Shown piece by piece: positions 12,464 through 37,153 of a DNA stretch of 64,000 bases. Where the stretch lies: positions 472-64,471 of the forward strand of contig DATABA010000031.1 of NCBI GenBank assembly GCA_036259835.1, read 5' to 3'. Under the pieces are notes generated by a model that made no database searches, had not been told where the DNA came from, and saw only the letters and a list, made by a program, of their open reading frames with translations. Origin of the DNA: Actinomycetota bacterium (lineage in GTDB: Bacteria > Actinomycetota > UBA4738). The position numbers and the translations under genes are program-made. The first letter of the stretch is position 1, and each line of letters opens with the position of its first letter.

Positions 12464-13323
12464 TGCGGCGTCACCGCCGGGTCGGCCTGAGAGCTATGCA
12501 GCTTGTCCAGGAAGCCCGTAAGCGGACTGGAGGCCTCGGCGGCCTCCCTTGCCGGACCGAGGCCAGCGCGATGCGCCTGGCGACCGGCTTCGACCCCGAG
12601 GCGGAACGCCCGCGCCATCTCGACCGGGTCGGTCGCGACGGCAATGGCCGTGTTGACCAGCACGGCATCCGCGCCCATCTCCATGGCTTCGGCTGCGTGG
12701 GACGGCGCACCCAGGCCGGCGTCGACGACGACCGGAACCGTGGCCTGCTCCAGGATGATCTGGATCGCGTCGCGAGTCCTCATGCCCTTGTTCGACCCGA
12801 TCCACGACCCGAGGGGCATGACCGTGGCGCATCCGGCGTCCTCGAGTCGCTTCGCCAGAACCGGGTCGGCGTTGATGTACGGAAGCACCGCGAAGCCCTC
12901 GGCAACGAGCATCTCGGCGGCCTTCAGCGTCTCGACCGGGTCCGGGAGCAGATACCGCGGTTCCGGCGTCACTTCGAGCTTCACCCACGGCGGCATCCCC
13001 GCCGCCCGTGCCAGACGGGCCAGTCGAACCGCCTCCTCCGCGTCCACGGCGCCAGAGGTGTTGGGCAGCAGCAACACGCGCTCCTGATCGATGAACTCCA
13101 GGATGTCGGGACCGCCGGTCGCCTCCAGATCGACGCGTCGCAATGCGACCGTCACCATCTCCGTCCCCGAGGCAGCAATGGCGTCTCGCATCACCGAGAA
13201 CGAGCCGAACTTGCCGGTCCCGATGATCAGGCGCGACCGAAAGGATCGGCCCGCGATCATCAACAGGTCTGAGGTGAGGTCGCCCTCGGGCGGGCCATTG
13301 TCGGAAGCCCCTGTGCCCCTCAT
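12460..13323 (-). CDS. thiG: Thiazole synthase ThiG (start uncertain: 13323 or 13260)
   Basis: Conserved ..[18 protein letters not shown].., ..VKLEV.., ..[11 protein letters not shown]... The track start (GTG 13338) lies inside the riboswitch P1 stem, so the ATG at 13323 is preferred. Confidence 0.9.
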
Positions 13324-13335
13324 TGAAATCCGAAT

Positions 13336-13423
13336 CACTCCCTTCGCCGGTGTTACCCGGATCAGGTTCCACGGGTCGCCGGCGCGTCCAGCCGGCCTCT
13401 CAGCCCGGTTGCCCGAGCTCCCC
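13336..13423 (-). promoter_or_regulatory. TPP (THI-box) riboswitch upstream of thiGHSE
   Basis: The minus strand reads GGGGAGCUCGGGCAACCGGGCUGAGAGGCCGG...GACCCGUGGAACCUGAUCCGGGUAACACCGGCGAAGGGAG. It contains the invariant CUGAGA and ACCUGAUCCGGGUAA(U/C)ACCGGCG(U/A)AGGGA elements. Confidence 0.85.
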
Positions 13424-13544
13424 GGAATAGCTCCCAGTCGAATCGATTATACGAGCGCGAACTGACTCGCTCTCGGCTCCCAGAGATCGCGTTTTCCTCC
13501 CATACAATCCGAACAAATCCACTGCTGGAGCGTGGAAGGACGTC

Positions 13545-28587: not shown

Positions 28588-29904
28588 CTACGACAGGACC
28601 GCCCGGAGAGCGTCGGCCATAGTCGGCGACCCCTCCGTCTCTTCCAGCTCGTAGGTGACCCTCACCGCGGGCTTGTCGATCCGGATCAGATGGCGAAGGT
28701 CGATCGGACTGGCCACCAGGACCACGTCGACCGGAGTGGAATTGATCATGGTCTCGAGCTCGTGGAGCTGCTCAGTGGAATAGCCCATCGCCGGGAGCAC
28801 AGGGCCGACCTCGTACTTGGCGTACACGTCCTTCAGCGTCCCGACGGCCCATTGGCGCGGGTCCACCACCTCGGCGGCGCCGTTCTGCCGGGCCGCCACC
28901 ACGCCGGCCCCGTAGAGCATGTCGCCGTGGGTCAGCGTCGGTCCGTCCTCGATGACCAGCACCCGCTTCCCGGCGATCTTCCCCCCTTCCTCGTCCACTC
29001 GAACCGGACTGCGCGCCTTGATGATCAGGGCATCGGGATTGACCGCGCCGGCGGAGTACATCACCTCCTGCACTTCATCTTCGGCTGCCGAATCCACCTT
29101 GTTGATGACGATGACGTCGGCCATTCGGAAATTGGTCTCGCCCGGGTGATACGAGAGCTCGTGTCCGGCTCTCAGGGGGTCCGCCACGACGATGTGGACG
29201 TTCGGCCGGTAGAACGGGTAGTCGTTGTTGCCTCCGTCCCACACCAGGACGTCGCATTCCTTCTGGGCCTGCTCGAGGATTTCGCCGTAGTCGACGCCGG
29301 CGAAAACGACGGTGTTGTTTCGCAGGTGCGGCTCGTACTCCTCGCGCTCCTCGATGGTGACGTTGGCCTCGTCCAGGTCGTCGAACGTCTGAAATCGCTG
29401 GACACGCTGCTTCACGATGTCGCCGTACGGCATCGGATGACGAACGACGACTGGCGTCTTCCCGTGCTCCTTCAGGGTTCGAACCACGTGCCGTGTGGTC
29501 TGGCTCTTCCCCGAGCCGGTTCGCACGGCGCACACCGCGACGACAGGGACGGATGCGTCGAGCATCGTTTCGTTTGGTCCGAGAATGATGAACGAAGCGC
29601 CGGCGGCCATGGCCACACTGGCCTGGTGCATCACGTACTCGTGCGAAACGTCCGAATAGGCGAAGACGACCTGGTCCACCCGGAGGTCTTTGACGAGCCG
29701 AGACAGCAAATCCTCGAGGTGAATGGGAATCCCGTCCGGATACCGCGACCCGGCCAACTCCGGAGGGTAGCGGCGGTTCTCGATAAATGGGATCTGCGTC
29801 GCCGTGAACGCAACGACTTCGGTTTCAGGGTCGTCGCGATACGCCACGTTGAAGTTGTGGAAGTCGCGGCCAGCCGCGCCCATGATCACCACGCGTCGCG
29901 TCAT
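28588..29904 (-). CDS. COG2403-type P-loop protein (predicted GTPase / cyclic-2,3-diphosphoglycerate-synthetase-like)
   Basis: RRVVIMGAAGRDFHNFNVAYRDDPETEVVAFTATQIP.., P-loop AVRTGSGKSQTTR, ..VVRHPMPYGD... Start taken at the internal MTRRVV. Confidence 0.65.
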   Translation of the reverse strand: MTRRVVIMGAAGRDFHNFNVAYRDDPETEVVAFTATQIPFIENRRYPPELAGSRYPDGIPIHLEDLLSRLVKDLRVDQVVFAYSDVSHEYVMHQASVAMAAGASFIILGPNETMLDASVPVVAVCAVRTGSGKSQTTRHVVRTLKEHGKTPVVVRHPMPYGDIVKQRVQRFQTFDDLDEANVTIEEREEYEPHLRNNTVVFAGVDYGEILEQAQKECDVLVWDGGNNDYPFYRPNVHIVVADPLRAGHELSYHPGETNFRMADVIVINKVDSAAEDEVQEVMYSAGAVNPDALIIKARSPVRVDEEGGKIAGKRVLVIEDGPTLTHGDMLYGAGVVAARQNGAAEVVDPRQWAVGTLKDVYAKYEVGPVLPAMGYSTEQLHELETMINSTPVDVVLVASPIDLRHLIRIDKPAVRVTYELEETEGSPTMADALRAVLS

Positions 29905-30020
29905 TCGTGAGCCTCTTTCGTGTGAGCGGGGGGCATTCGCGGGCAGCCGAACGAGCTTACGTGGGCGAAAACGGCGCGTCAAAGATCGCTGTTCGTACCT
30001 CCCGCCTCAGCCGATGCAAG

Positions 30021-30935
30021 CTAGACGAGCGTGGGAAGGACGCGCTCTGCGATGAGCTCCCGACGGCCGGCAGGCCCGGCCAGCACGATGATGACCCACT
30101 CGGCGCCCGCGTCGGCGAGATCACGGAGATGCTCGGCAAAGTCCTCAGCTGGCCCGGCCCACGCCAGCTCGTCCGTCAACCCCTTCTGCTTTCGCGACTC
30201 GAGGAGGCGGTCGACGTCGGTCTTGTCCTCACCGACGAGAACGATTCCGGCCCAGGTCGCCTCCGCTCGACGACCGGCGGCAGCGGCCTCCTCCGCGAGA
30301 ACCTGCGACTTCGTTCGAAACGCGTCCGGGAGGAGACCCCATCCGTTCCACCCGTCGGCGATCCGTCCCGCCATGCGAACGACTTCGTCGGCCTGTGCTC
30401 CGATCCATACGGGCGGACCTCCCTGCTGAACCGGAGGCGGGAGCAGAGGCCCGTCCAACCTCGGGACGTGGTCGCCGCCCTCGAAGACGTTTCCCGAGAA
30501 GAGCGCCTTCACAGCAGAAACCGTCTCGGCGAGGTGCGCCCGTCTCTCTTTCACCCCGAGGTTCGGGAAGCCGAACGTGTCATGCTCTGGACGGTCGATC
30601 GGGTCACCCGTTCCGATGCCCAGCACCATCCGGCCATCGCTCATCAAGTCGATGGTCGAAGCCATCTTCGCCAGGAGCCCAGGCGGTCGGAGAACGGCGC
30701 GGGTGACAAGGGTCCCGAGTCGCACGCGTTCGGTGCTTGCCGCCACAGCGGCGAGGGTGGTGAACGCCTCCAGAGCGGGCCGATCCGGGCTCGCTCCCGG
30801 GGGGAAGAAATGGTCGAAGACAAAAGCCCCGTCGTAGCCGAGCTGTTCGGACGCCTGCGCGGCGGAGATGACCTTCGCCGGATCGCCCGAGAACATCGGC
30901 AAAACCACGCCGACCTTCGGTCTTCGCTCGCTCAT
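30021..30935 (-). CDS. LLM-class (luciferase-like) F420-dependent oxidoreductase
   Basis: ..LGYDGAFVFDHFFPPG.., ..RVRLGTLVTR.., ..GRMVLGIGTGD... 304 aa. 4-nt overlap with the upstream glucokinase gene. Confidence 0.8.
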   Translation of the reverse strand: MSERRPKVGVVLPMFSGDPAKVISAAQASEQLGYDGAFVFDHFFPPGASPDRPALEAFTTLAAVAASTERVRLGTLVTRAVLRPPGLLAKMASTIDLMSDGRMVLGIGTGDPIDRPEHDTFGFPNLGVKERRAHLAETVSAVKALFSGNVFEGGDHVPRLDGPLLPPPVQQGGPPVWIGAQADEVVRMAGRIADGWNGWGLLPDAFRTKSQVLAEEAAAAGRRAEATWAGIVLVGEDKTDVDRLLESRKQKGLTDELAWAGPAEDFAEHLRDLADAGAEWVIIVLAGPAGRRELIAERVLPTLV

Positions 30936-31918
30936 CCGGTGAACGCCTCTCCTTTCGGGTGCGCGCCGTGCTCTTCTGCCTGCAAAACCGCGAGGTCTGC
31001 GGCACCGACCGCTCCGGCATCGTTCCCCAACTTTGCCCGAACGATGGGGACTCCCGGGCGATGCTGGGGGGCTTCCACGGCCTCGAGGAAGGCTTGCCTT
31101 GCCGGATCCAGAAGAGCGTCTCCCACGTCGGCCACTCCGCCCCCCACCACGACCACTTCGGGATCGAGGACGTTGACCAATCCCGCGATCCCCTCCCCGA
31201 GGCGCCGGCCCACGTCCGCCAACACGCGAATAGCCACCGGGTCACCGTACTGAGCCGCCTCGGAGACCAGCCGCCCGGTCACATTCTGTGAGTCCCCGCT
31301 GGCCATCCGAGCCAGCGTGCTCTCGGGCTGGCGCTGCGCCGCCTCCCGGCCCAGGCGGTCCAGGGCCCGGCCCGACGCAACCTGTTCCCAGCACCCCAAG
31401 TTCCCGCACCCGCAACGAGGCCCGTTCGGTTCGACGATGATGTGGCCGATCTCGCCGGCAAACCCGTGGGCGCCCCGAACGAGCTTCCCGTCCGAAACGA
31501 TTCCGCCCCCGATCCCAGTCCCCACCGTCACCAGCAGCATGTCGTTGAATTCCAGGCCGGCTCCATACCTGAACTCGCCCCATGCCGCTGCGTTCGCGTC
31601 GTTGTCGACGACGGTTGGAAGTCCGGTCGCGGCAGCCACCTCGTGTCGGATCGGAACATCGCGCCACGCCACGTTCGGCGCGAACCGCATGACGCCCTTC
31701 CGATCCACCATGCCGGCCGCTCCCACCCCGATTGCCAGTACCTGGTCGGCCATGAGCTCCCGCGCCACGGCGACGATCGCGCGCACCGATGCAGCCGAAT
31801 CCTCCGCGGGCGTGGCGACGGTCCGCCGGTCGAGGATCGTTCCTTCGGTCGTATCGACCAGAAGACCCCTCACCTTGGTCCCACCCGCGTCGACGCCAAC
31901 AGCAAGTCGAGCCGGCAT
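30932..31918 (-). CDS. glk: ROK-family glucokinase
   Basis: GVDAGGTKV.., ..VDNDANAAAWGE.., ROK zinc motif CGCGNLGCWEQ. Confidence 0.85.
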   Translation of the reverse strand: MPARLAVGVDAGGTKVRGLLVDTTEGTILDRRTVATPAEDSAASVRAIVAVARELMADQVLAIGVGAAGMVDRKGVMRFAPNVAWRDVPIRHEVAAATGLPTVVDNDANAAAWGEFRYGAGLEFNDMLLVTVGTGIGGGIVSDGKLVRGAHGFAGEIGHIIVEPNGPRCGCGNLGCWEQVASGRALDRLGREAAQRQPESTLARMASGDSQNVTGRLVSEAAQYGDPVAIRVLADVGRRLGEGIAGLVNVLDPEVVVVGGGVADVGDALLDPARQAFLEAVEAPQHRPGVPIVRAKLGNDAGAVGAADLAVLQAEEHGAHPKGEAFTG

Positions 31919-31986: not shown

Positions 31987-33105
31987 TCAGTACCGAAGGA
32001 GCGCGCCGACGTCCTCCTTGCCGGTGTCGGTTCGGTCGAGCGTTTGGACACGAGAGCTCTGTTTGATGGCAGCCTCCACAGCCGACTCCATCACGTCGGG
32101 GACGTCCTCGAACTCCGCACCACAGCGAGGGCATGTCTTTCCCGTGACGGCGAGCCACTCGCACCGCGGACACTTCAACCCTTTTTCCGATCGCCCGAAC
32201 GGGACCACCAGAGTGTCGACTCGTCCTTCGTTCAGCGCCTTGAGTGCGTGCCCGAGCCCAATGACGCCCAAGCGACCGGCCGCCGCCTCAGCTTCGAGCC
32301 TCTCCAGGGTGGCCCTCTCCCGCTGCCCTTCCAGCTCTTCCTCGACCTGGAGTGATTTCTGCAGCACGTCATCGGCGTTGGCATGCATCGGAAGCGTCGT
32401 TCGGGCCACCACCCGGCGCTTCAGGTAGTCGTGGAGGCCCTCCTCGAACGCCGGAACGATCTCCTCGGGACCGGCGAGGATCAGATGATCGAAGTTTCGG
32501 CGCTTGAAGTAACGAAGGAGGACGTCCCCAACGTGCTTGAGGTGCCGTTCCACCAGCTCCTCGATATGTCGCTGAAACCGCGCCTGCGACCATCCGCCCT
32601 GGTCGTGCTGCCCGGGAACGTCATCGAACACGTCGGTCGCTTCTTCGATCCTTCCCATCTTCGCCAGAAACACCCGTGCCTTCTCCCGGTCGACGATCAC
32701 CGTGCAGAACGACTCGTACGTCTCCACCATGGCTTCCAGCGGCAGGACGTACGGGTGGTCGGCGATCACCGCTCGGTCCTGGACGGAACGGGGCACCAGG
32801 ACCTTCTCCCACATCCCGGCCTCTGACGACGAGAACAATGCGACGCCTCGGTTATTGCCTCGATCCAGGCCGTTGAGGAAGTCGATGAACCGGTCGACGT
32901 CGCCTTTCACCGAGCGCTTGGCCTCCTTGTCCCCAGCGGCCTGGTCCTTCAGCTGCGTGCAGAGCGCTTCCGCTCTCACCATGTAGTTCTCGCGACGCGG
33001 AAATCGGCGTCCGTCGACGTCGAGGTAGAGGCTCGAGACCGGCGCGCCGTTCGAGCTCCACTCGGCTAGCTTGCGCAGATAGTCGCGGTCGAGGTCGGCC
33101 ATCAC
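31987..33105 (-). CDS. eRF1/Vms1-like (bacterial archaeo-eukaryotic release-factor family) protein with C-terminal zinc ribbon
   Basis: 372 aa. It carries a GGQ-like loop GQHDQGGWSQARFQRH (compare eRF1 GRGGQSALRF) and CPRC-x11-CPRC near the C-terminus. 4-nt overlap with the upstream 117-aa gene. Confidence 0.6.
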   Translation of the reverse strand: MMADLDRDYLRKLAEWSSNGAPVSSLYLDVDGRRFPRRENYMVRAEALCTQLKDQAAGDKEAKRSVKGDVDRFIDFLNGLDRGNNRGVALFSSSEAGMWEKVLVPRSVQDRAVIADHPYVLPLEAMVETYESFCTVIVDREKARVFLAKMGRIEEATDVFDDVPGQHDQGGWSQARFQRHIEELVERHLKHVGDVLLRYFKRRNFDHLILAGPEEIVPAFEEGLHDYLKRRVVARTTLPMHANADDVLQKSLQVEEELEGQRERATLERLEAEAAAGRLGVIGLGHALKALNEGRVDTLVVPFGRSEKGLKCPRCEWLAVTGKTCPRCGAEFEDVPDVMESAVEAAIKQSSRVQTLDRTDTGKEDVGALLRY

Positions 33106-33455
33106 TCCACCTTGATCCGCTCGAGCTTCGACGGCTTGGCCGTCCCCTCCAGCCGCGCGTCGATGAGCGAACGAACCGCCAGCAGCACTTCGCGGCTTGC
33201 CCCCAACAGGTGCTGCACGAGGTCGGGGCGAGCCTCTCCCACCGCAGTGACGACCAGGCAGATCGGACAGAGCGCCACGGAACAGATCGGCTGCTGCATC
33301 TCGTGGGCTCCATCGGCCAGCGCCGAGAGATCCGCTTCCAGCGAGGGCTCGCTTGGATCCGGTCCTGAGTTGATCGTGATCTTCTCGGCGCGCCGGCTCG
33401 ATGATCGTGTGGAGGACCGCCGTGATCGCTGTGAATTCCCCTTTGTTTCCGCCAT
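33102..33455 (-). CDS. Small protein with Ser/Arg-rich N-terminus and CxxxxCxxC motif (unknown function)
   Basis: 117 aa: MAETKGNSQRSRRSSTRSSSRR... then ..QQPICSVALCPICLVV... Its start lies 1 nt after the ArsA stop and its stop overlaps the eRF1-like start. Confidence 0.5.
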   Translation of the reverse strand: MAETKGNSQRSRRSSTRSSSRRAEKITINSGPDPSEPSLEADLSALADGAHEMQQPICSVALCPICLVVTAVGEARPDLVQHLLGASREVLLAVRSLIDARLEGTAKPSKLERIKVE

Positions 33456-33456
33456 G

Positions 33457-34674
33457 TCATCTCCTCGCTTGAGAACCGGCGTCGACCGGTGCCTCCCGAG
33501 CGGAGGGCTTCGCGAACCGAACGTCCAGTCGGCCGTCCTCGAAGTTCGCTTCCTGCACCTCCAACCGCTGCAGCGTCTGCGGCAGGATCATGTTTCTCTT
33601 GTACGACCCGACGCTGATGTACAGCTCGTCGGCCTTGCGGAACACGTCCAAGTCCGACCGTTCGACGAACGGCAACCGCAAGGAGAGAACGTACGAGCTG
33701 CCTCTCCGCCTGACGCGCATCGGTTCATCGCGGTGCAGGATGGAGGTCGGGTCGGTGTCGCCGTAGACCTCTCCCGCCATGTCGGCCAGAAGATCGAGTC
33801 CCACCATTTCGCGGTCGAACAACCGCGCCTTCAGGATCGGAACCGGCTCGAAGGACTCCATGATCATGGACAGGTGTTCGGCCTGGATCTCCTTCCACTT
33901 GCCGAAGTAGGGGTCCGACACCTCGGCCGGAATGATCCTGTTCACCACCACCGCGTCTGTTCGATAGCCGAACAGCGAGAGGTACGTGTAGGTCCGTCGC
34001 GCTTCGGCGATGACCATCTTCTCGGGGTTCACCACCAGGCGAACCGACGACATCCGATCGTTCGTCAGAAGCTGCCGCACGCCGTCCAGGTTGCGATGCA
34101 GTCGTTCAACCGCAGCGTAGATGCGGTCTTCGGCGATGGGCATGGTGGTGATGCGCGTGAGCAGCGGGCGAACGGTCTTCACGATGCGGCGTTCGACCGG
34201 AAAGATTCGCTCGATGTACCAGTTCATGATCTCCGGGAGCGAGAGCAGCCGAAGCGTTTCCGCCGTGGGCGCGCAATCGATCACCAGGAGGTCGTACTTC
34301 CCTGAATCCACGTGCTGCTTGACGTCGATCAGGCTGAAGATCTCGTCCAGCCCGGGAATGACCGAGAGCTCCTCCGCTTCGATCGCGTCGACGCCCGCCC
34401 AATTCAGCCAGGAGATCACGAACTCCTGAATCTCCCGCCAGTTCGCCTCCAGCCGATCCTGGGCGTCGATCTGCTCGGCCCAGAGGTTCGGCGCGATCTC
34501 CTGGGCGCTCGACGAGAGCGGGATGTCGAATGAGTCGGCCAGCGAGTGGGCGGGGTCCGTGCTGATGACGATGGTTCGTTTGCCCGACATCGCGGCCCGG
34601 ACTGCGGTGGACGCGGCAACGGTGGTCTTGCCGACCCCGCCCTTGCCGGTGAACAGGAGGATCCGCACGACCAA
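33457..34674 (-). CDS. ArsA/Get3-family ATPase
   Basis: Deviant Walker A FTGKGGVGKTT, signature TDPAHSL, 405 aa. Confidence 0.85.
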   Translation of the reverse strand: MVVRILLFTGKGGVGKTTVAASTAVRAAMSGKRTIVISTDPAHSLADSFDIPLSSSAQEIAPNLWAEQIDAQDRLEANWREIQEFVISWLNWAGVDAIEAEELSVIPGLDEIFSLIDVKQHVDSGKYDLLVIDCAPTAETLRLLSLPEIMNWYIERIFPVERRIVKTVRPLLTRITTMPIAEDRIYAAVERLHRNLDGVRQLLTNDRMSSVRLVVNPEKMVIAEARRTYTYLSLFGYRTDAVVVNRIIPAEVSDPYFGKWKEIQAEHLSMIMESFEPVPILKARLFDREMVGLDLLADMAGEVYGDTDPTSILHRDEPMRVRRRGSSYVLSLRLPFVERSDLDVFRKADELYISVGSYKRNMILPQTLQRLEVQEANFEDGRLDVRFAKPSAREAPVDAGSQARR

Positions 34675-34716
34675 AGAGCCTACTGAAAAGGGTGAGGGAG
34701 CCGGTTTCTCGGCTGC

Positions 34717-35163
34717 TTAGCGGCCCTCCACCCGCTTCTTCAGGCCGCCGAGGGCCGTGCCGACGATCATTCGCTCCGCCTGCTTTCGAACCATCCCCGG
34801 CAGCTTCACGCCCGCCTCGACGGTCATCCGGTACGTCACATGAGTCCCGTCGTCGGTCTCCTCGAGCTCGTATTCGCCCTTGAGGCTCTTTACGGCGCCG
34901 GATGCGTCCTTTGACGTCCACGACAACCCGCCGTTCTTCGCCTTGTACTTGTAGGTCAGGGTGTAGCTGGCGTTGAAGCCCATCTGTCCGACTTCCATGA
35001 AGACCTCGCTCGGGCGGCCCTGTGAATCGGTCTTCTTCACCTCCACCTTCTTCACTCCCTGCGCCCAGTCGGGATACGACTCGAAGTCCGTGATGACCTC
35101 GAGGACCTCCTCCGCCGTGGCGTTGATGTCGATGTCGCCTTCGGTCTGCTCGGCCATGGACAC
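34717..35163 (-). CDS. SRPBCC (cyclase/dehydrase, START-like) protein
   Basis: 148 aa. ..ATAEEVLEVITDFESYPDWAQGVKKVEV.. is typical of the polyketide_cyc2/SRPBCC fold. Confidence 0.7.
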   Translation of the reverse strand: MSMAEQTEGDIDINATAEEVLEVITDFESYPDWAQGVKKVEVKKTDSQGRPSEVFMEVGQMGFNASYTLTYKYKAKNGGLSWTSKDASGAVKSLKGEYELEETDDGTHVTYRMTVEAGVKLPGMVRKQAERMIVGTALGGLKKRVEGR

Positions 35164-35177
35164 TCCCTTCCGTCGAC

Positions 35178-35945
35178 CTAGTCGGCCACCTCGATCGTGA
35201 AACCCCGGCCCGTTGCCTGGAAGTGGCCGACGTTCACGAACTCTGTCCCGTGGATCATGCCTCGATTGACAAGCGGCTGATGAACGTGCCCGAACAACGC
35301 ATACCTCGGCCGGTGCTGCTGCGCGTACGCGATCAGGGCGACCGATCCGGGCTCGAACTTCCTGGCAACGACGTCGTAGGTGTACCAGGGAATCCTGGGC
35401 GGCATGTGGGTGCAGATCACGTCAACCCGGCCGACTTGTTCGAACTTCGCCTCGTATTCCGCGTCCGACACTTCTCCCGGGATGCCAAGGGGCGTTTGCA
35501 CGCCGCCCCCGACGAACCCGAAAGTGGTGTCGCCGACCCGCACGCTCTCGCCATCAACGAATCGCACGCGCTCGGGCAGCGACGCGCGCAAAACATCGGG
35601 AACGTCCACGTTCCCGAACGTCACGTAGGTGCGGTCGGGAAGCGCCTCGAAGACCTGCTCGTATTGCCGTCGCGCCAACTCCAGGAATCGGGCCCGGAAA
35701 TCGAAGTCCGGCGCGGTGCTCCGCCGAATCGCCGCTCTAGCCTCGTCGAATTTCCCTCTGGATCGCAGGTCGGCCGCTTTCGCCACCGGTTCGCGCCCGA
35801 AGACCTCGACCAGGATCCCGTCCATCGTGCGGTAGTCGAGAACGTTGATGAGATCGCCCAGAACGAGCAGGACGTCGCACTCGCGGGCGATTGGCTGGAT
35901 GTGCTCGACCGCTCCGTGAAGGTCCGAGATCGCGGTCACCCGCAC
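35178..35945 (-). CDS. Metallophosphoesterase
   Basis: ..VTAISDLHG.., ..VLGDLIN.., ..GNVD.., ..FGHVH... Start taken at GTG 35945, because the track start at 36023 adds an unconserved extension that overlaps the divergent HAD gene. Confidence 0.75.
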   Translation of the reverse strand: MRVTAISDLHGAVEHIQPIARECDVLLVLGDLINVLDYRTMDGILVEVFGREPVAKAADLRSRGKFDEARAAIRRSTAPDFDFRARFLELARRQYEQVFEALPDRTYVTFGNVDVPDVLRASLPERVRFVDGESVRVGDTTFGFVGGGVQTPLGIPGEVSDAEYEAKFEQVGRVDVICTHMPPRIPWYTYDVVARKFEPGSVALIAYAQQHRPRYALFGHVHQPLVNRGMIHGTEFVNVGHFQATGRGFTIEVAD

Positions 35946-35970
35946 GCCGAGGAGGGTAGCATCCGCCGTC

Positions 35971-36738
35971 GTGACTCCCAGCGACGGCCCGGTTCGAGGG
36001 ATTCTCTTCGATTTCGGCCACACGCTCGTGGATTTCCAACGAACTCAGGAAGCGCTTCACGCGGCGTACGAACAGATCAGAGCTCGCATCGAGGCGGTCG
36101 CGTACATGGAGGTTCCTGAGCTATTGGATCTGGTGGAGCGAGTCGCCGGCGGCGTTGATCGCCTGGTGGAGCAGTCCTACGAGGAGCGAAGGTTGCAAGA
36201 GCTGGACCAGGCCCAGCTGCTTCGCGATTCGTTCGCGACGATCGGATTCGACCTCCCGGACGACGTTCTCGAGCACATCGTGCACCTCGATCACTCGGCA
36301 TACTCGAATTCGCTCACTGTTACACCGGACGTGATGTCAACACTCGAGGACCTTCACGCTCGCGGATACCGAATGGGACTCGTGTCGAACCTCTCGCTGC
36401 GTCCGGCGCTCGTCAGGCAGGATCTCGATCGACTCGGCCTCGCTCGGTTCCTCGAAGCCACCGTTTTCTCGAGCGAGATCGGATATCGAAAGCCGGATCC
36501 TCGAATCTTTCAGACCGCCTTGGAGCGGCTGGAGTCAGATCCGGCAGAAACCGTGTTCGTTGGTGACCGGCTGCTTGACGACATAAGCGGCGCGCGTGCA
36601 GTCGGAATGCGAGGGGTGCAGACCCGACAGTTCAGGCAGGAAGAGAACCCCGAGGTCGTTCCCGACGGCGTTATCGAGCACCTCAAGGAGCTTCCCGGCG
36701 TGCTCGAGCGGTGGCCCGGTCCTCGAACACGGTCCTGA
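35971..36738 (+). CDS. HAD-superfamily hydrolase (subfamily IA-like)
   Basis: Motif I ILFDFGHTL, motif II ..LVSN.., motif III/IV ..YRKPD.. and ..VFVGDRLLDDISGA... Confidence 0.8.
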   Translation: MTPSDGPVRGILFDFGHTLVDFQRTQEALHAAYEQIRARIEAVAYMEVPELLDLVERVAGGVDRLVEQSYEERRLQELDQAQLLRDSFATIGFDLPDDVLEHIVHLDHSAYSNSLTVTPDVMSTLEDLHARGYRMGLVSNLSLRPALVRQDLDRLGLARFLEATVFSSEIGYRKPDPRIFQTALERLESDPAETVFVGDRLLDDISGARAVGMRGVQTRQFRQEENPEVVPDGVIEHLKELPGVLERWPGPRTRS

Positions 36739-37153
36739 GCGCCACGAGGCCGTTTCGAATCGCCGACCGGTAGGCTCGCTCGCGCCGATTCCACCGACGC
36801 GGACGAGTGGCGAGCCTCAGAAGGCCGTTGACGACGGTTCCTTCCTTGGAGGGTTCCAGGAACCACTCCAGCACTCCATCCACGTCGCCGGCCATCTGGA
36901 TGATCACCCCGACTCCTGGGCGCTTCCCTGCGACGGAAGCCTTCACCCGACCCAGCGCGGGAAGCGTCAGCGTGACGTGTCGTTCGGTCTCACGTTCATC
37001 TATCCGGATGTCGCTCCACCACGACGGATACGTGGGAAGGCTTTCGACAATCCGATAGACGTCTTCCGGCGGTCCGGGAACCCAGCCTCGGTCGTGAACG
37101 GAGACTTCAGGCGCATACGGTTCGGCGGGAGTGGAAGGTCGCCCGTAATCCAT
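36683..37153 (-). CDS. SRPBCC-family protein (START-like)
   Basis: 156 aa. ..PPEDVYRIVESLPTYPSWWSDI... It lies 7 nt downstream of the GT4 gene, and its 3' end overlaps the convergent HAD gene by 56 nt. Confidence 0.6.
   Translation of the reverse strand: MDYGRPSTPAEPYAPEVSVHDRGWVPGPPEDVYRIVESLPTYPSWWSDIRIDERETERHVTLTLPALGRVKASVAGKRPGVGVIIQMAGDVDGVLEWFLEPSKEGTVVNGLLRLATRPRRWNRRERAYRSAIRNGLVALRTVFEDRATARARREAP

Follow-up and report, generated by a model that had tools for sequence, protein, structure and literature searches.

Does the close linkage of a gene for a Get3-type ATPase to a gene for a relative of the release factor eRF1 point to a common pathway in bacteria, or do two independent units merely stand next to each other? 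The question is raised by a locus on contig DATABA010000031.1 (GCA_036259835.1) of a soil actinobacterium, of which a stretch of 64,000 nt was analysed; this stretch is called the window below, and all coordinates are positions within it. Here a gene for an ATPase of the ArsA/Get3 fold (ArsA) is followed by a gene for a 117-aa protein (the small protein, or partner) and then by a gene for a 372-aa protein of the aeRF1 superfamily, which belongs to baeRF-1 family 10 (baeRF). An earlier note, made from the sequence of this DNA, had proposed that the three form a quality-control or membrane-targeting module. We favour a different reading, to which we assign a probability of roughly 0.55. ArsA and its partner on the one hand, and the baeRF on the other, appear to be two separable units that have stood side by side through the history of one lineage, perhaps with shared expression under stress, and that do not form an obligate single pathway. 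All three proteins come from described families, and the baeRF is already annotated by NCBI; to our knowledge, it is the gene order that is newly described. Neither PMC6514570 nor PMC10901736 mentions this order in its main text, and no other paper on it was found.

The favoured reading draws first on a comparison of gene order. Reference genomes and metagenomes supplied 146 loci that encode family-10 relatives, and we searched their six-frame open reading frames (ORFs) with the window proteins and with a hidden Markov model of the small protein. The locus counts rest on the resulting homology-based tables; ad hoc gene calls gave antisense shadow ORFs in this high-GC DNA. Because the loci were retrieved with an alignment of 11 members that bear the characteristic loop of the family (see below), counts of GGW[SA]Q among them are biased, and are not used as evidence. 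In 39 loci, ArsA lies 249–502 nt upstream of the baeRF, with space for the small gene only. Three others have the ArsA-small pair 2.8–3.2 kb upstream, with another gene between, and in two (L087, L102) an SRPBCC gene directly precedes the baeRF and ArsA is absent. Neither ArsA nor the small gene is present in 58 loci, although 2 kb or more is available upstream, and 45 loci were too short to judge. The three-gene linkage therefore extends beyond this genome; confinement to it would have counted against the earlier note. All 39 tight loci come from Actinomycetota metagenome-assembled genomes (MAGs) or soil metagenomes and represent one uncultured lineage. The 58 loci without ArsA belong to Thermoleophilaceae, Chloroflexota, Eisenbacteria, WOR-3 and other groups, and have recurrent neighbours of their own: a divergent sigma-70-type factor, a BON/YtxH protein, ABC transporter genes, PCMT with GalT, and CoaBC with diacylglycerol kinase. 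In the Thermoleophilaceae loci (L036, L040, L042 and others), for example, the divergent sigma-70-type factor flanks the baeRF, and the BON/YtxH (OsmY-like) protein and an ABC-2 transporter follow, a recurrent setting of stress type that differs from the one in the window. The baeRF thus lies beside the ArsA-partner pair in this lineage only, and elsewhere in every other sampled taxon.

The converse arrangement came from a reverse test, in which the ATPase was searched against annotated records by tblastn. Nonomuraea gerenzanensis has a gene for an ArsA-type ATPase with an alpha-crystallin domain (ArsA-ACD) that is 44% identical to the window ATPase. It stands in the order metallophosphoesterase (MPE), SRPBCC, ArsA-ACD, 145-aa protein, ROK, with ROK immediately 3′. 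The SRPBCC protein is 42% identical to the window copy and has the same ...LKGLKKRVEGR end. The 145-aa protein is a true member of DUF5304 (32.4 bits, cut-off 26.8), carries C-RA-C-P-V-C and the same helix as the small protein, and ends in V-E-H-I-D-L-N. When the window baeRF was searched against the same collection, including the whole Nonomuraea replicon, there were zero matches. This replicon (NZ_LT559118.1, L154) is filed as 'plasmid I' in PLSDB with 10 annotated features only; at 11.85 Mb, it is evidently the chromosome.

Since family-10 genes occur without ArsA in 58 loci, and Nonomuraea has the ArsA-DUF5304 pair without a baeRF, the units are separable in both directions and their order is lineage-specific. 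Moreover, because MPE, SRPBCC, ArsA, the small protein and ROK stand in the same order in Nonomuraea, the ancestral actinobacterial block is best reconstructed as MPE, SRPBCC, the pair of ArsA-ACD and a DUF5304-type partner, and ROK, with the baeRF as an optional insert between partner and ROK. The constant unit is the ArsA-small pair, which is seen in all 39 tight loci, in the diverged loci L045, L084 and L090, and in Nonomuraea. ROK and the luciferase-like gene usually lie 3′ of the baeRF in the tight loci and are as constant as ArsA; where a clade locus reaches so far, ROK stands after the baeRF. MPE is found 5′ of SRPBCC in many loci of the clade, where SRPBCC does not always adjoin ArsA.

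Other genes can occupy the junction between the two units. In L045 (QEUQ01000002.1, 2453-4963), a full-length Lon protease is encoded between the ArsA-partner pair and the baeRF, with an 8-nt overlap into the baeRF start. The MAG in question is labelled 'Acidobacteria bacterium ATN3', which may be wrong, since SRPBCC, ArsA, ROK and the luciferase-like gene flank the Lon gene as in the block of Actinomycetota; a metagenome scan with the baeRF of L045 reached 38% identity at most and gave no close relatives. In L090 (4402-6987) and L084 (583-3186), the same site holds an ORF of about 860 aa with no Pfam match. Its globular N-terminus is 38% identical over 85 aa between L084 and L090; it also has an Ala/Glu/Arg coiled coil of great length and, at the C-terminus, a Walker-B-like LPFVLDHALTGL. 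This looks like a protein of the SMC/Rad50 type with a degenerate P-loop. The sister lineages L083-L090 and L093 keep the synteny from ArsA through baeRF to ROK, and in them the GGWSQ loop of the baeRF is replaced by acidic, non-conserved sequence, such as LPRGDDDDHSYRK. Some of the sister-lineage loci are without the ArsA-small pair.

What might the first unit do? The ATPase (405 aa) has an intact P-loop, with GKGGVGKT (residue 10) and DPAHS (residue 40), motifs that the earlier note had identified correctly; the C-terminal ArsA_HSP20/alpha-crystallin domain had been missed. The NosAFP model is matched over its full length at 163 bits, below the cut-off of 325, and the nearest PDB sequences are the archaeal Get3-like 3zq6 (4e-51) and NosGet3d 3igf (4e-27). 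Proteins that combine the Get3 fold with an alpha-crystallin domain form a known, widespread and functionally uncharacterised bacterial group, whose members are best regarded as general chaperones (PMC6593721, PMC10248533), and this Get3d-type group has been recorded in Actinobacteria (PMC6593721). The window ATPase shares with Get3d the one Get3-fold domain, the C-terminal alpha-crystallin domain and the full-length NosAFP match, but differs in falling below the equivalog cut-off. NosGet3d has been described as having no nucleotide-binding site (PMC6593721), whereas the P-loop is intact here. In addition, partner proteins have not been described for Get3d (PMC6593721, PMC10248533), whereas the window ATPase gene has a conserved small partner gene directly 3′.

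This partner has 339 detectable homologs, each of them with a match to PF27253 (AF_1253); support from PF27253 consists of precomputed matches only. Against the DUF5304 profile (PF17230), the window protein scores 16 bits versus a cut-off of 26.8, and weak matches are likewise seen in 28 of 32 homologs. However, hhalign of the window family against the DUF5304 protein of Nonomuraea gives a probability of 94% (E 1.5e-7), so that the two genes, which occupy the same position, appear homologous, although the window protein is shorter and passes the newer PF27253 model only. A literature search on DUF5304 and AF_1253 found no published function. Streptomyces coelicolor SCO2127, the ORF upstream of glkA, may also belong with DUF5304; papers speak of a hypothetical protein. 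In an AlphaFold2 (AF2) model of the small protein, residues 1-60 are disordered, and two helices (64-75 and 77-104; predicted local distance difference test, pLDDT, 83-94) begin at the Cys motif. The Ser/Arg-rich N-terminus to which the earlier note drew attention is real, though unconserved; among homologs, the net charge of this variable stretch lies anywhere between -8 and +9. The Cys motif named there, CSVALCPIC, has fared better. It corresponds to C-x4-C-P-x-C, of which C58, C63, P64 and C66 are unchanged across 32 homologs. The helix pattern H-L-x-x-A-x-R-E-x-L-L-A-x-R-x-x-x-D-A-R-L and the C-terminal L-E-R-h-x-h-x are also invariant. An [ILVM]-x-[IV]-x-COOH end is present in all 32 sampled homologs, as well as in the diverged versions from L045, L084, L090 and Nonomuraea. 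In L045, the Cys motif is cut down to C-x2-C-P, and in L084 and L090 it is gone; all three proteins retain the helix and still end in [ILV]-x-[IV]. A search for homologs that started from the diverged L045 protein gave zero matches.

Small heat-shock proteins dock I-x-I/V tails at their C-termini into the alpha-crystallin domain. The tail of the small protein resembles this anchoring motif, and the neighbouring ATPase has an alpha-crystallin domain, but docking here would work in trans, from a separate polypeptide onto a domain fused to the ATPase. A plasmid of B. thuringiensis (NZ_CP151870.1, L155:4001-5366) offers a parallel. Its ArsA-ACD is 41.5% identical to the window ATPase, has a MarR regulator 5′ and, overlapping it on the 3′ side, a 63-aa DUF3926 gene whose product ends in NIIIE. 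A sequence relationship between DUF3926 and the actinobacterial partner is not detectable, and we regard the arrangement as an analogous pairing, in Bacillota, of the ATPase with a small I-x-I-tailed protein.

The second unit consists of the baeRF. The earlier note had let its description of this protein as eRF1-like stand or fall by profile searches, and these bear it out. The baeRF_family10 profile (PF18854), which covers the middle domain of RNase-H fold, is matched from end to end (1-143 of 143; 117.4 bits, 7.7e-34, cut-off 27.1), and weaker Pfam matches are to acVLRF1 (49.8 bits, 5e-13, above cut-off), eRF1_2 and other baeRF families. Among NCBIfam models, aRF1_eRF1 (TIGR03676) matches the full length of the protein at 94 bits, versus a cut-off of 234.7. 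Next best are the hibernation-factor families, with scores of 80 versus 320 (Rv2629), 72 versus 480 (MSMEG_1130) and 33 versus 330 bits (AOC03_06830), whereas NCBIfam acVLRF1 gives 22 bits versus 125. An exhaustive search places 542 cluster representatives in the family at E <= 1e-30. For a profile built from 24 diverse members, the best alignment runs from end to end of MSMEG_1130, a homolog of the hibernation factor Balon solved by cryo-EM (4.9e-29); archaeal aRF1 (6e-20), eRF1, Rv2629 and Pelota come next.

In the middle domain, the family sequence V-P-G-x-H-D-Q-G-G-W-S-Q-x-R-x-Q-R-H lies residue for residue over vPGkHkmGGQSQrRYeR of the Aeropyrum aRF1. The canonical glutamine of GGQ is Trp in family 10, and a Gln follows two residues on (GGWSQ from residue 170). 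H167, G170, G171, W172, Q174, R176, R179 and H180 are identical in 11 members that share 30-60% identity. The loop is degraded in one family-10 subgroup as well as in the sister lineages mentioned above. A motif check of the 372-aa protein found no GGQ, NIKS or YxCxxxF. The CxxC...CxxC ribbon of the C-terminal domain is nearly invariant in family 10; L102, L107 and L128 keep the loop and have lost the zinc-ribbon cysteines. With aRF1 and eRF1, then, the window protein has in common the loop context VPGxHxxGGxSQxRxxR and the zinc ribbon of the C-domain, and it differs from them in having GGW for GGQ, in lacking NIKS and YxCxxxF, and in scoring below the TIGR03676 cut-off.

Balon, MSMEG_1130 and Rv2629 (PDB 8v9j, 8v9k, 8rd8) attach to the A site of the ribosome and are without GGQ and NIKS (PMC10901736). 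They belong to the same superfamily as family 10 and share with it the three-domain layout, the absence of NIKS and an archaeal aRF1 ancestry. In contrast to family 10, MSMEG_1130 has neither a GGWSQ-like loop nor the four-Cys zinc ribbon (there are no cysteines at the aligned position), and in Balon a beta-hairpin that binds EF-Tu sits where family 10 keeps the ribbon. By these sequence comparisons, the 372-aa protein belongs to the Balon clade, as a less derived member that resembles aRF1. Its retention of both the GGWSQ loop and the zinc ribbon means that peptidyl-tRNA hydrolysis would still be possible. This is in line with the work of Burroughs and Aravind (2019), who described the GGxSQ form of the loop and singled out family 10 as one that retains the conserved Gln, in a loop of constrained length that may be catalytic (PMC6514570). 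For termination itself, bacteria use RF1/RF2 (PMC6514570). The earlier note had likened the protein to Vms1, and some features agree with this: NCBI names an identical MAG protein 'Vms1/Ankzf1 family peptidyl-tRNA hydrolase', and the window protein has a GGxSQ-type loop such as has been described for aVLRF1 and acVLRF1 (PMC6514570). The analogy is nonetheless loose, because the protein is best placed in the baeRF-1 clade, among relatives of Balon, rather than in the VLRF1 clade; its Pfam acVLRF1 score, though above cut-off, is well under that for family 10. Moreover, acVLRF1 is without the N-terminal domain (PMC6514570), which is present here.

Putting these observations together, we can sketch how each of the two units might work. 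The ATPase and its helical partner would act as an ATP-regulated chaperone of the holdase type. The C-terminal [ILV]-x-[IV] tail of the partner may dock into the alpha-crystallin domain of the ATPase, much as the tails of small heat-shock proteins do, and the Cys triad of the small protein of this clade could add a metal or redox site. The baeRF would enter the A site independently of stop codons, because NIKS and YxCxxxF are absent from it, and would place its GGWSQ loop at the peptidyl-transferase centre. There, to judge from the conservation of the loop, the protein of this clade could plausibly free peptidyl-tRNA from stalled ribosomes; alternatively, it may park ribosomes. We consider hydrolysis and non-catalytic hibernation about equally likely as roles for this second unit.

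Several points weigh against the reading of two separable units. The order ArsA-small-baeRF is remarkably stable within the lineage, down to a baeRF with E = 2e-47 (L107), and the small gene and the baeRF overlap by 4 nt in 15 of 32 loci. The genes 5′ of ArsA differ between loci, as expected of a functional operon that starts there. Lon is an enzyme of proteostasis, and as the insert of L045 it fits a quality-control theme. In addition, the AF2 model of the baeRF (25 close relatives aligned; mean pLDDT 55.6, C-domain alone confident) is too poor to support the loop geometry, and docking of the I-x-I/V tail is a hypothesis drawn from the motif. Tight or overlapping junctions in 39 loci and a GGWSQ loop kept in the window clade are what one might look for in a dedicated system of ribosome-associated quality control, in which the baeRF releases nascent chains, the ATPase captures them, the small protein serves as adaptor and Lon degrades them in some lineages. 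We think such a system unlikely. The homologies and the conserved linkage that led the earlier note to a Get3/eRF1 module are sound, but a dedicated module is not implied by the comparative data. The inference is weak because the two units occur apart, in the 58 loci without ArsA and in Nonomuraea without a baeRF; because the inserts between them include not only Lon but also the SMC-like protein, which has no obvious link to the theme; because ROK and the luciferase-like gene accompany the baeRF just as constantly; and because sister lineages keep the synteny after loss of the loop. The boldest reading is a bacterial counterpart of ribosome-associated quality control in this lineage, where a catalytic family-10 protein would free the chains, the ATPase and its I-x-I/V adaptor would hold them for refolding, insertion or degradation, and Lon would have joined the operon in one sister lineage; this, too, we regard as improbable. 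A more serious contender concerns the baeRF by itself. It may be a non-catalytic hibernation factor of the Balon type, which occupies the A site of idle or stalled ribosomes together with EF-Tu during stress, and whose GGWSQ only binds the peptidyl-transferase centre. MSMEG_1130 is the best solved relative and aligns over the full length, the hibernation-factor families rank next after aRF1, the N-domain lacks NIKS, Trp replaces the glutamine of GGQ, and subgroups persist after loop loss. Furthermore, the neighbours in the 58 loci of more distant members resemble the stress-type gene contexts given for Balon (PMC10901736). However, the scores against the Rv2629 and MSMEG_1130 families lie far below their cut-offs, the loop (H-D/E-Q-G-G-W-S/A-Q-x-R-x-Q-R-H) is conserved well beyond what a non-catalytic role would lead one to expect, its Gln and constrained length were remarked upon by Burroughs and Aravind (PMC6514570), and the zinc ribbon is kept in place of the hairpin that contacts EF-Tu. 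On balance, we put the chances of pure hibernation somewhat short of even.

Two further explanations take their cue from the ATPase. The Pfam name ArsA_ATPase and the three cysteines of the small protein could be taken to indicate an arsenic-resistance locus, with the ATPase as pump subunit and the small protein as an ArsD-like metallochaperone. This idea is effectively refuted. The arsenite-pump model TIGR04291 gives 104 bits versus a cut-off of 650, and the protein has one ATPase domain, no tandem halves and a single cysteine (C134), which leaves no metalloid-binding triad. The block contains no arsB, arsC or arsR, and related small proteins can do without the Cys motif. It is also conceivable that tail-anchored membrane proteins are delivered by the ATPase, as a genuine Get3, and that the small protein is its receptor or client. 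In agreement with this, the TRC40/GET3/ArsA model TIGR00345 is passed with 262 bits (cut-off 135), and the small protein has a moderately hydrophobic segment, ICSVALCPICLVVTAVG. But a search of the ATPase for CxxC or CxC found none, so that the zinc-dimer motif of Get3/TRC40 is missing; ICSVALCPICLVVTAVG is internal, is predicted to be a soluble helix in the AF2 model, and is gone in L084 and L090; and bacterial homologs of this kind do not correlate with the content of tail-anchored proteins (PMC6593721). On these grounds we reject tail-anchor targeting as very improbable. As far as its sequence tells, the ATPase belongs neither to an arsenite pump nor among the Get3 proteins bridged by zinc.

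Under the favoured reading of two separable units, the adjacency of Get3 and eRF1 homologs should be treated as lineage-specific gene order unless an interaction appears. Each unit merits attention in its own right. Family 10 of baeRF-1 comprises the bacterial aeRF1 relatives likeliest to keep peptidyl-tRNA hydrolase chemistry, none of which is known to have been studied experimentally, and the window clade offers a clean comparison with the loop-less Balon. The most valuable by-product is the conserved pairing of a Get3-type ATPase that bears an alpha-crystallin domain with a small protein that ends in an I-x-I/V tail. The small gene accompanies that of the ATPase in deep-branching soil Actinomycetota and as far as Nonomuraea, which makes its product a concrete candidate partner.

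Table 1. Genes and sequence features of the locus, with positions in the 64,000-nt window.
Feature	Position	Strand	Basis
Metallophosphoesterase (MPE), opens the wider conserved block	35178..36023	-	Metallophos 1.9e-08
Small protein of SRPBCC/START fold	34717..35163	-	Polyketide_cyc2 9.6e-17
P-loop ATPase of ArsA/Get3 fold, single domain with C-terminal alpha-crystallin domain (Get3d-like architecture)	33457..34674	-	ArsA_ATPase 1.4e-88
HSP20/alpha-crystallin-like domain of the ATPase, residues 326-387	33514..33699	-	PF17886 ArsA_HSP20 2.7e-23
117-aa ATPase partner, PF27253 (AF_1253) family, distant relative of DUF5304	33102..33455	-	PF27253 matches of homologs; hhalign
C-x4-C-P-x-C motif (C58, C63, P64, C66) at start of helix 1, small protein	33258..33284	-	invariant in 32 homologs
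I-K-V at the C-terminus, part of the [ILVM]-x-[IV]-x-COOH tail, small protein	33108..33116	-	32/32 homologs
372-aa three-domain protein of the aeRF1 superfamily, baeRF-1 family 10	31987..33105	-	PF18854 117 bits
Middle-domain loop VPGQHDQGGWSQARFQRH, residues 163-180, baeRF; positional equivalent of the aRF1 GGQ loop	32566..32619	-	alignment to aRF1
CxxC...CxxC zinc ribbon (C312, C315, C325, C328), C-terminal domain of baeRF	32122..32172	-	family conservation
ROK-family glucokinase	30932..31918	-	ROK 1.1e-76; TIGR00744 266 bits (cut-off 260)
Luciferase-like monooxygenase	30021..30935	-	Bac_luciferase 3.5e-47

The seven genes run co-directionally between 36023 and 30021 (Table 1). The earlier note had delimited a unit of four, from SRPBCC to the baeRF; these four ORFs lie on the minus strand where it had placed them, but the co-directional run is longer, as ROK and the luciferase-like gene follow. 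The TGA stop of ArsA is separated by one base from the ATG of the small gene, a gap already given correctly, and GAGGAG lies just 5′ (read from sequence). The junction between the small gene and the baeRF reads GTG-GAG-TGA-TGG. With a GTG start, the baeRF has 372 aa and overlaps the small gene by 4 nt (GTGA); with the ATG start annotated by NCBI, it has 371 aa and the overlap is 1 nt (TGATG). The earlier note's 4-nt overlap of type 'ATGA' thus has the right length for the GTG start but the wrong letters. Spacers of 42 nt and 68 nt separate SRPBCC from ArsA and the baeRF from ROK, respectively, and a 4-nt overlap joins the end of ROK to the luciferase-like gene. The genes are probably co-transcribed. 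Promoter and terminator scans of the block were uninformative, with nothing promoter-like and no convincing terminator-like site, and a scan against Rfam gave zero elements inside or near it.

The sole Rfam match in the window is a thiamine pyrophosphate (TPP) riboswitch (RF00059) at 13320-13434 on the minus strand, with 64.9 bits, above the gathering score. Two other ORFs near the block may be mentioned. Upstream, a second SRPBCC-like ORF (36683-37153, minus strand) matches Polyketide_cyc2 weakly, with 26.3 bits where the cut-off is 27.4, and its 3′ end overlaps a convergent HAD hydrolase gene (35971-36738, plus strand) by about 56 nt. Downstream, a 464-aa protein (28588-29982, minus strand) has only a marginal match to the P-loop of CobW/HypB/UreG. 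In L001, L002 and L153, a similar place downstream is taken by a gene of about 436 aa with no or faint Pfam matches, so that this may be an uncharacterised GTPase-like gene which the lineage has conserved.

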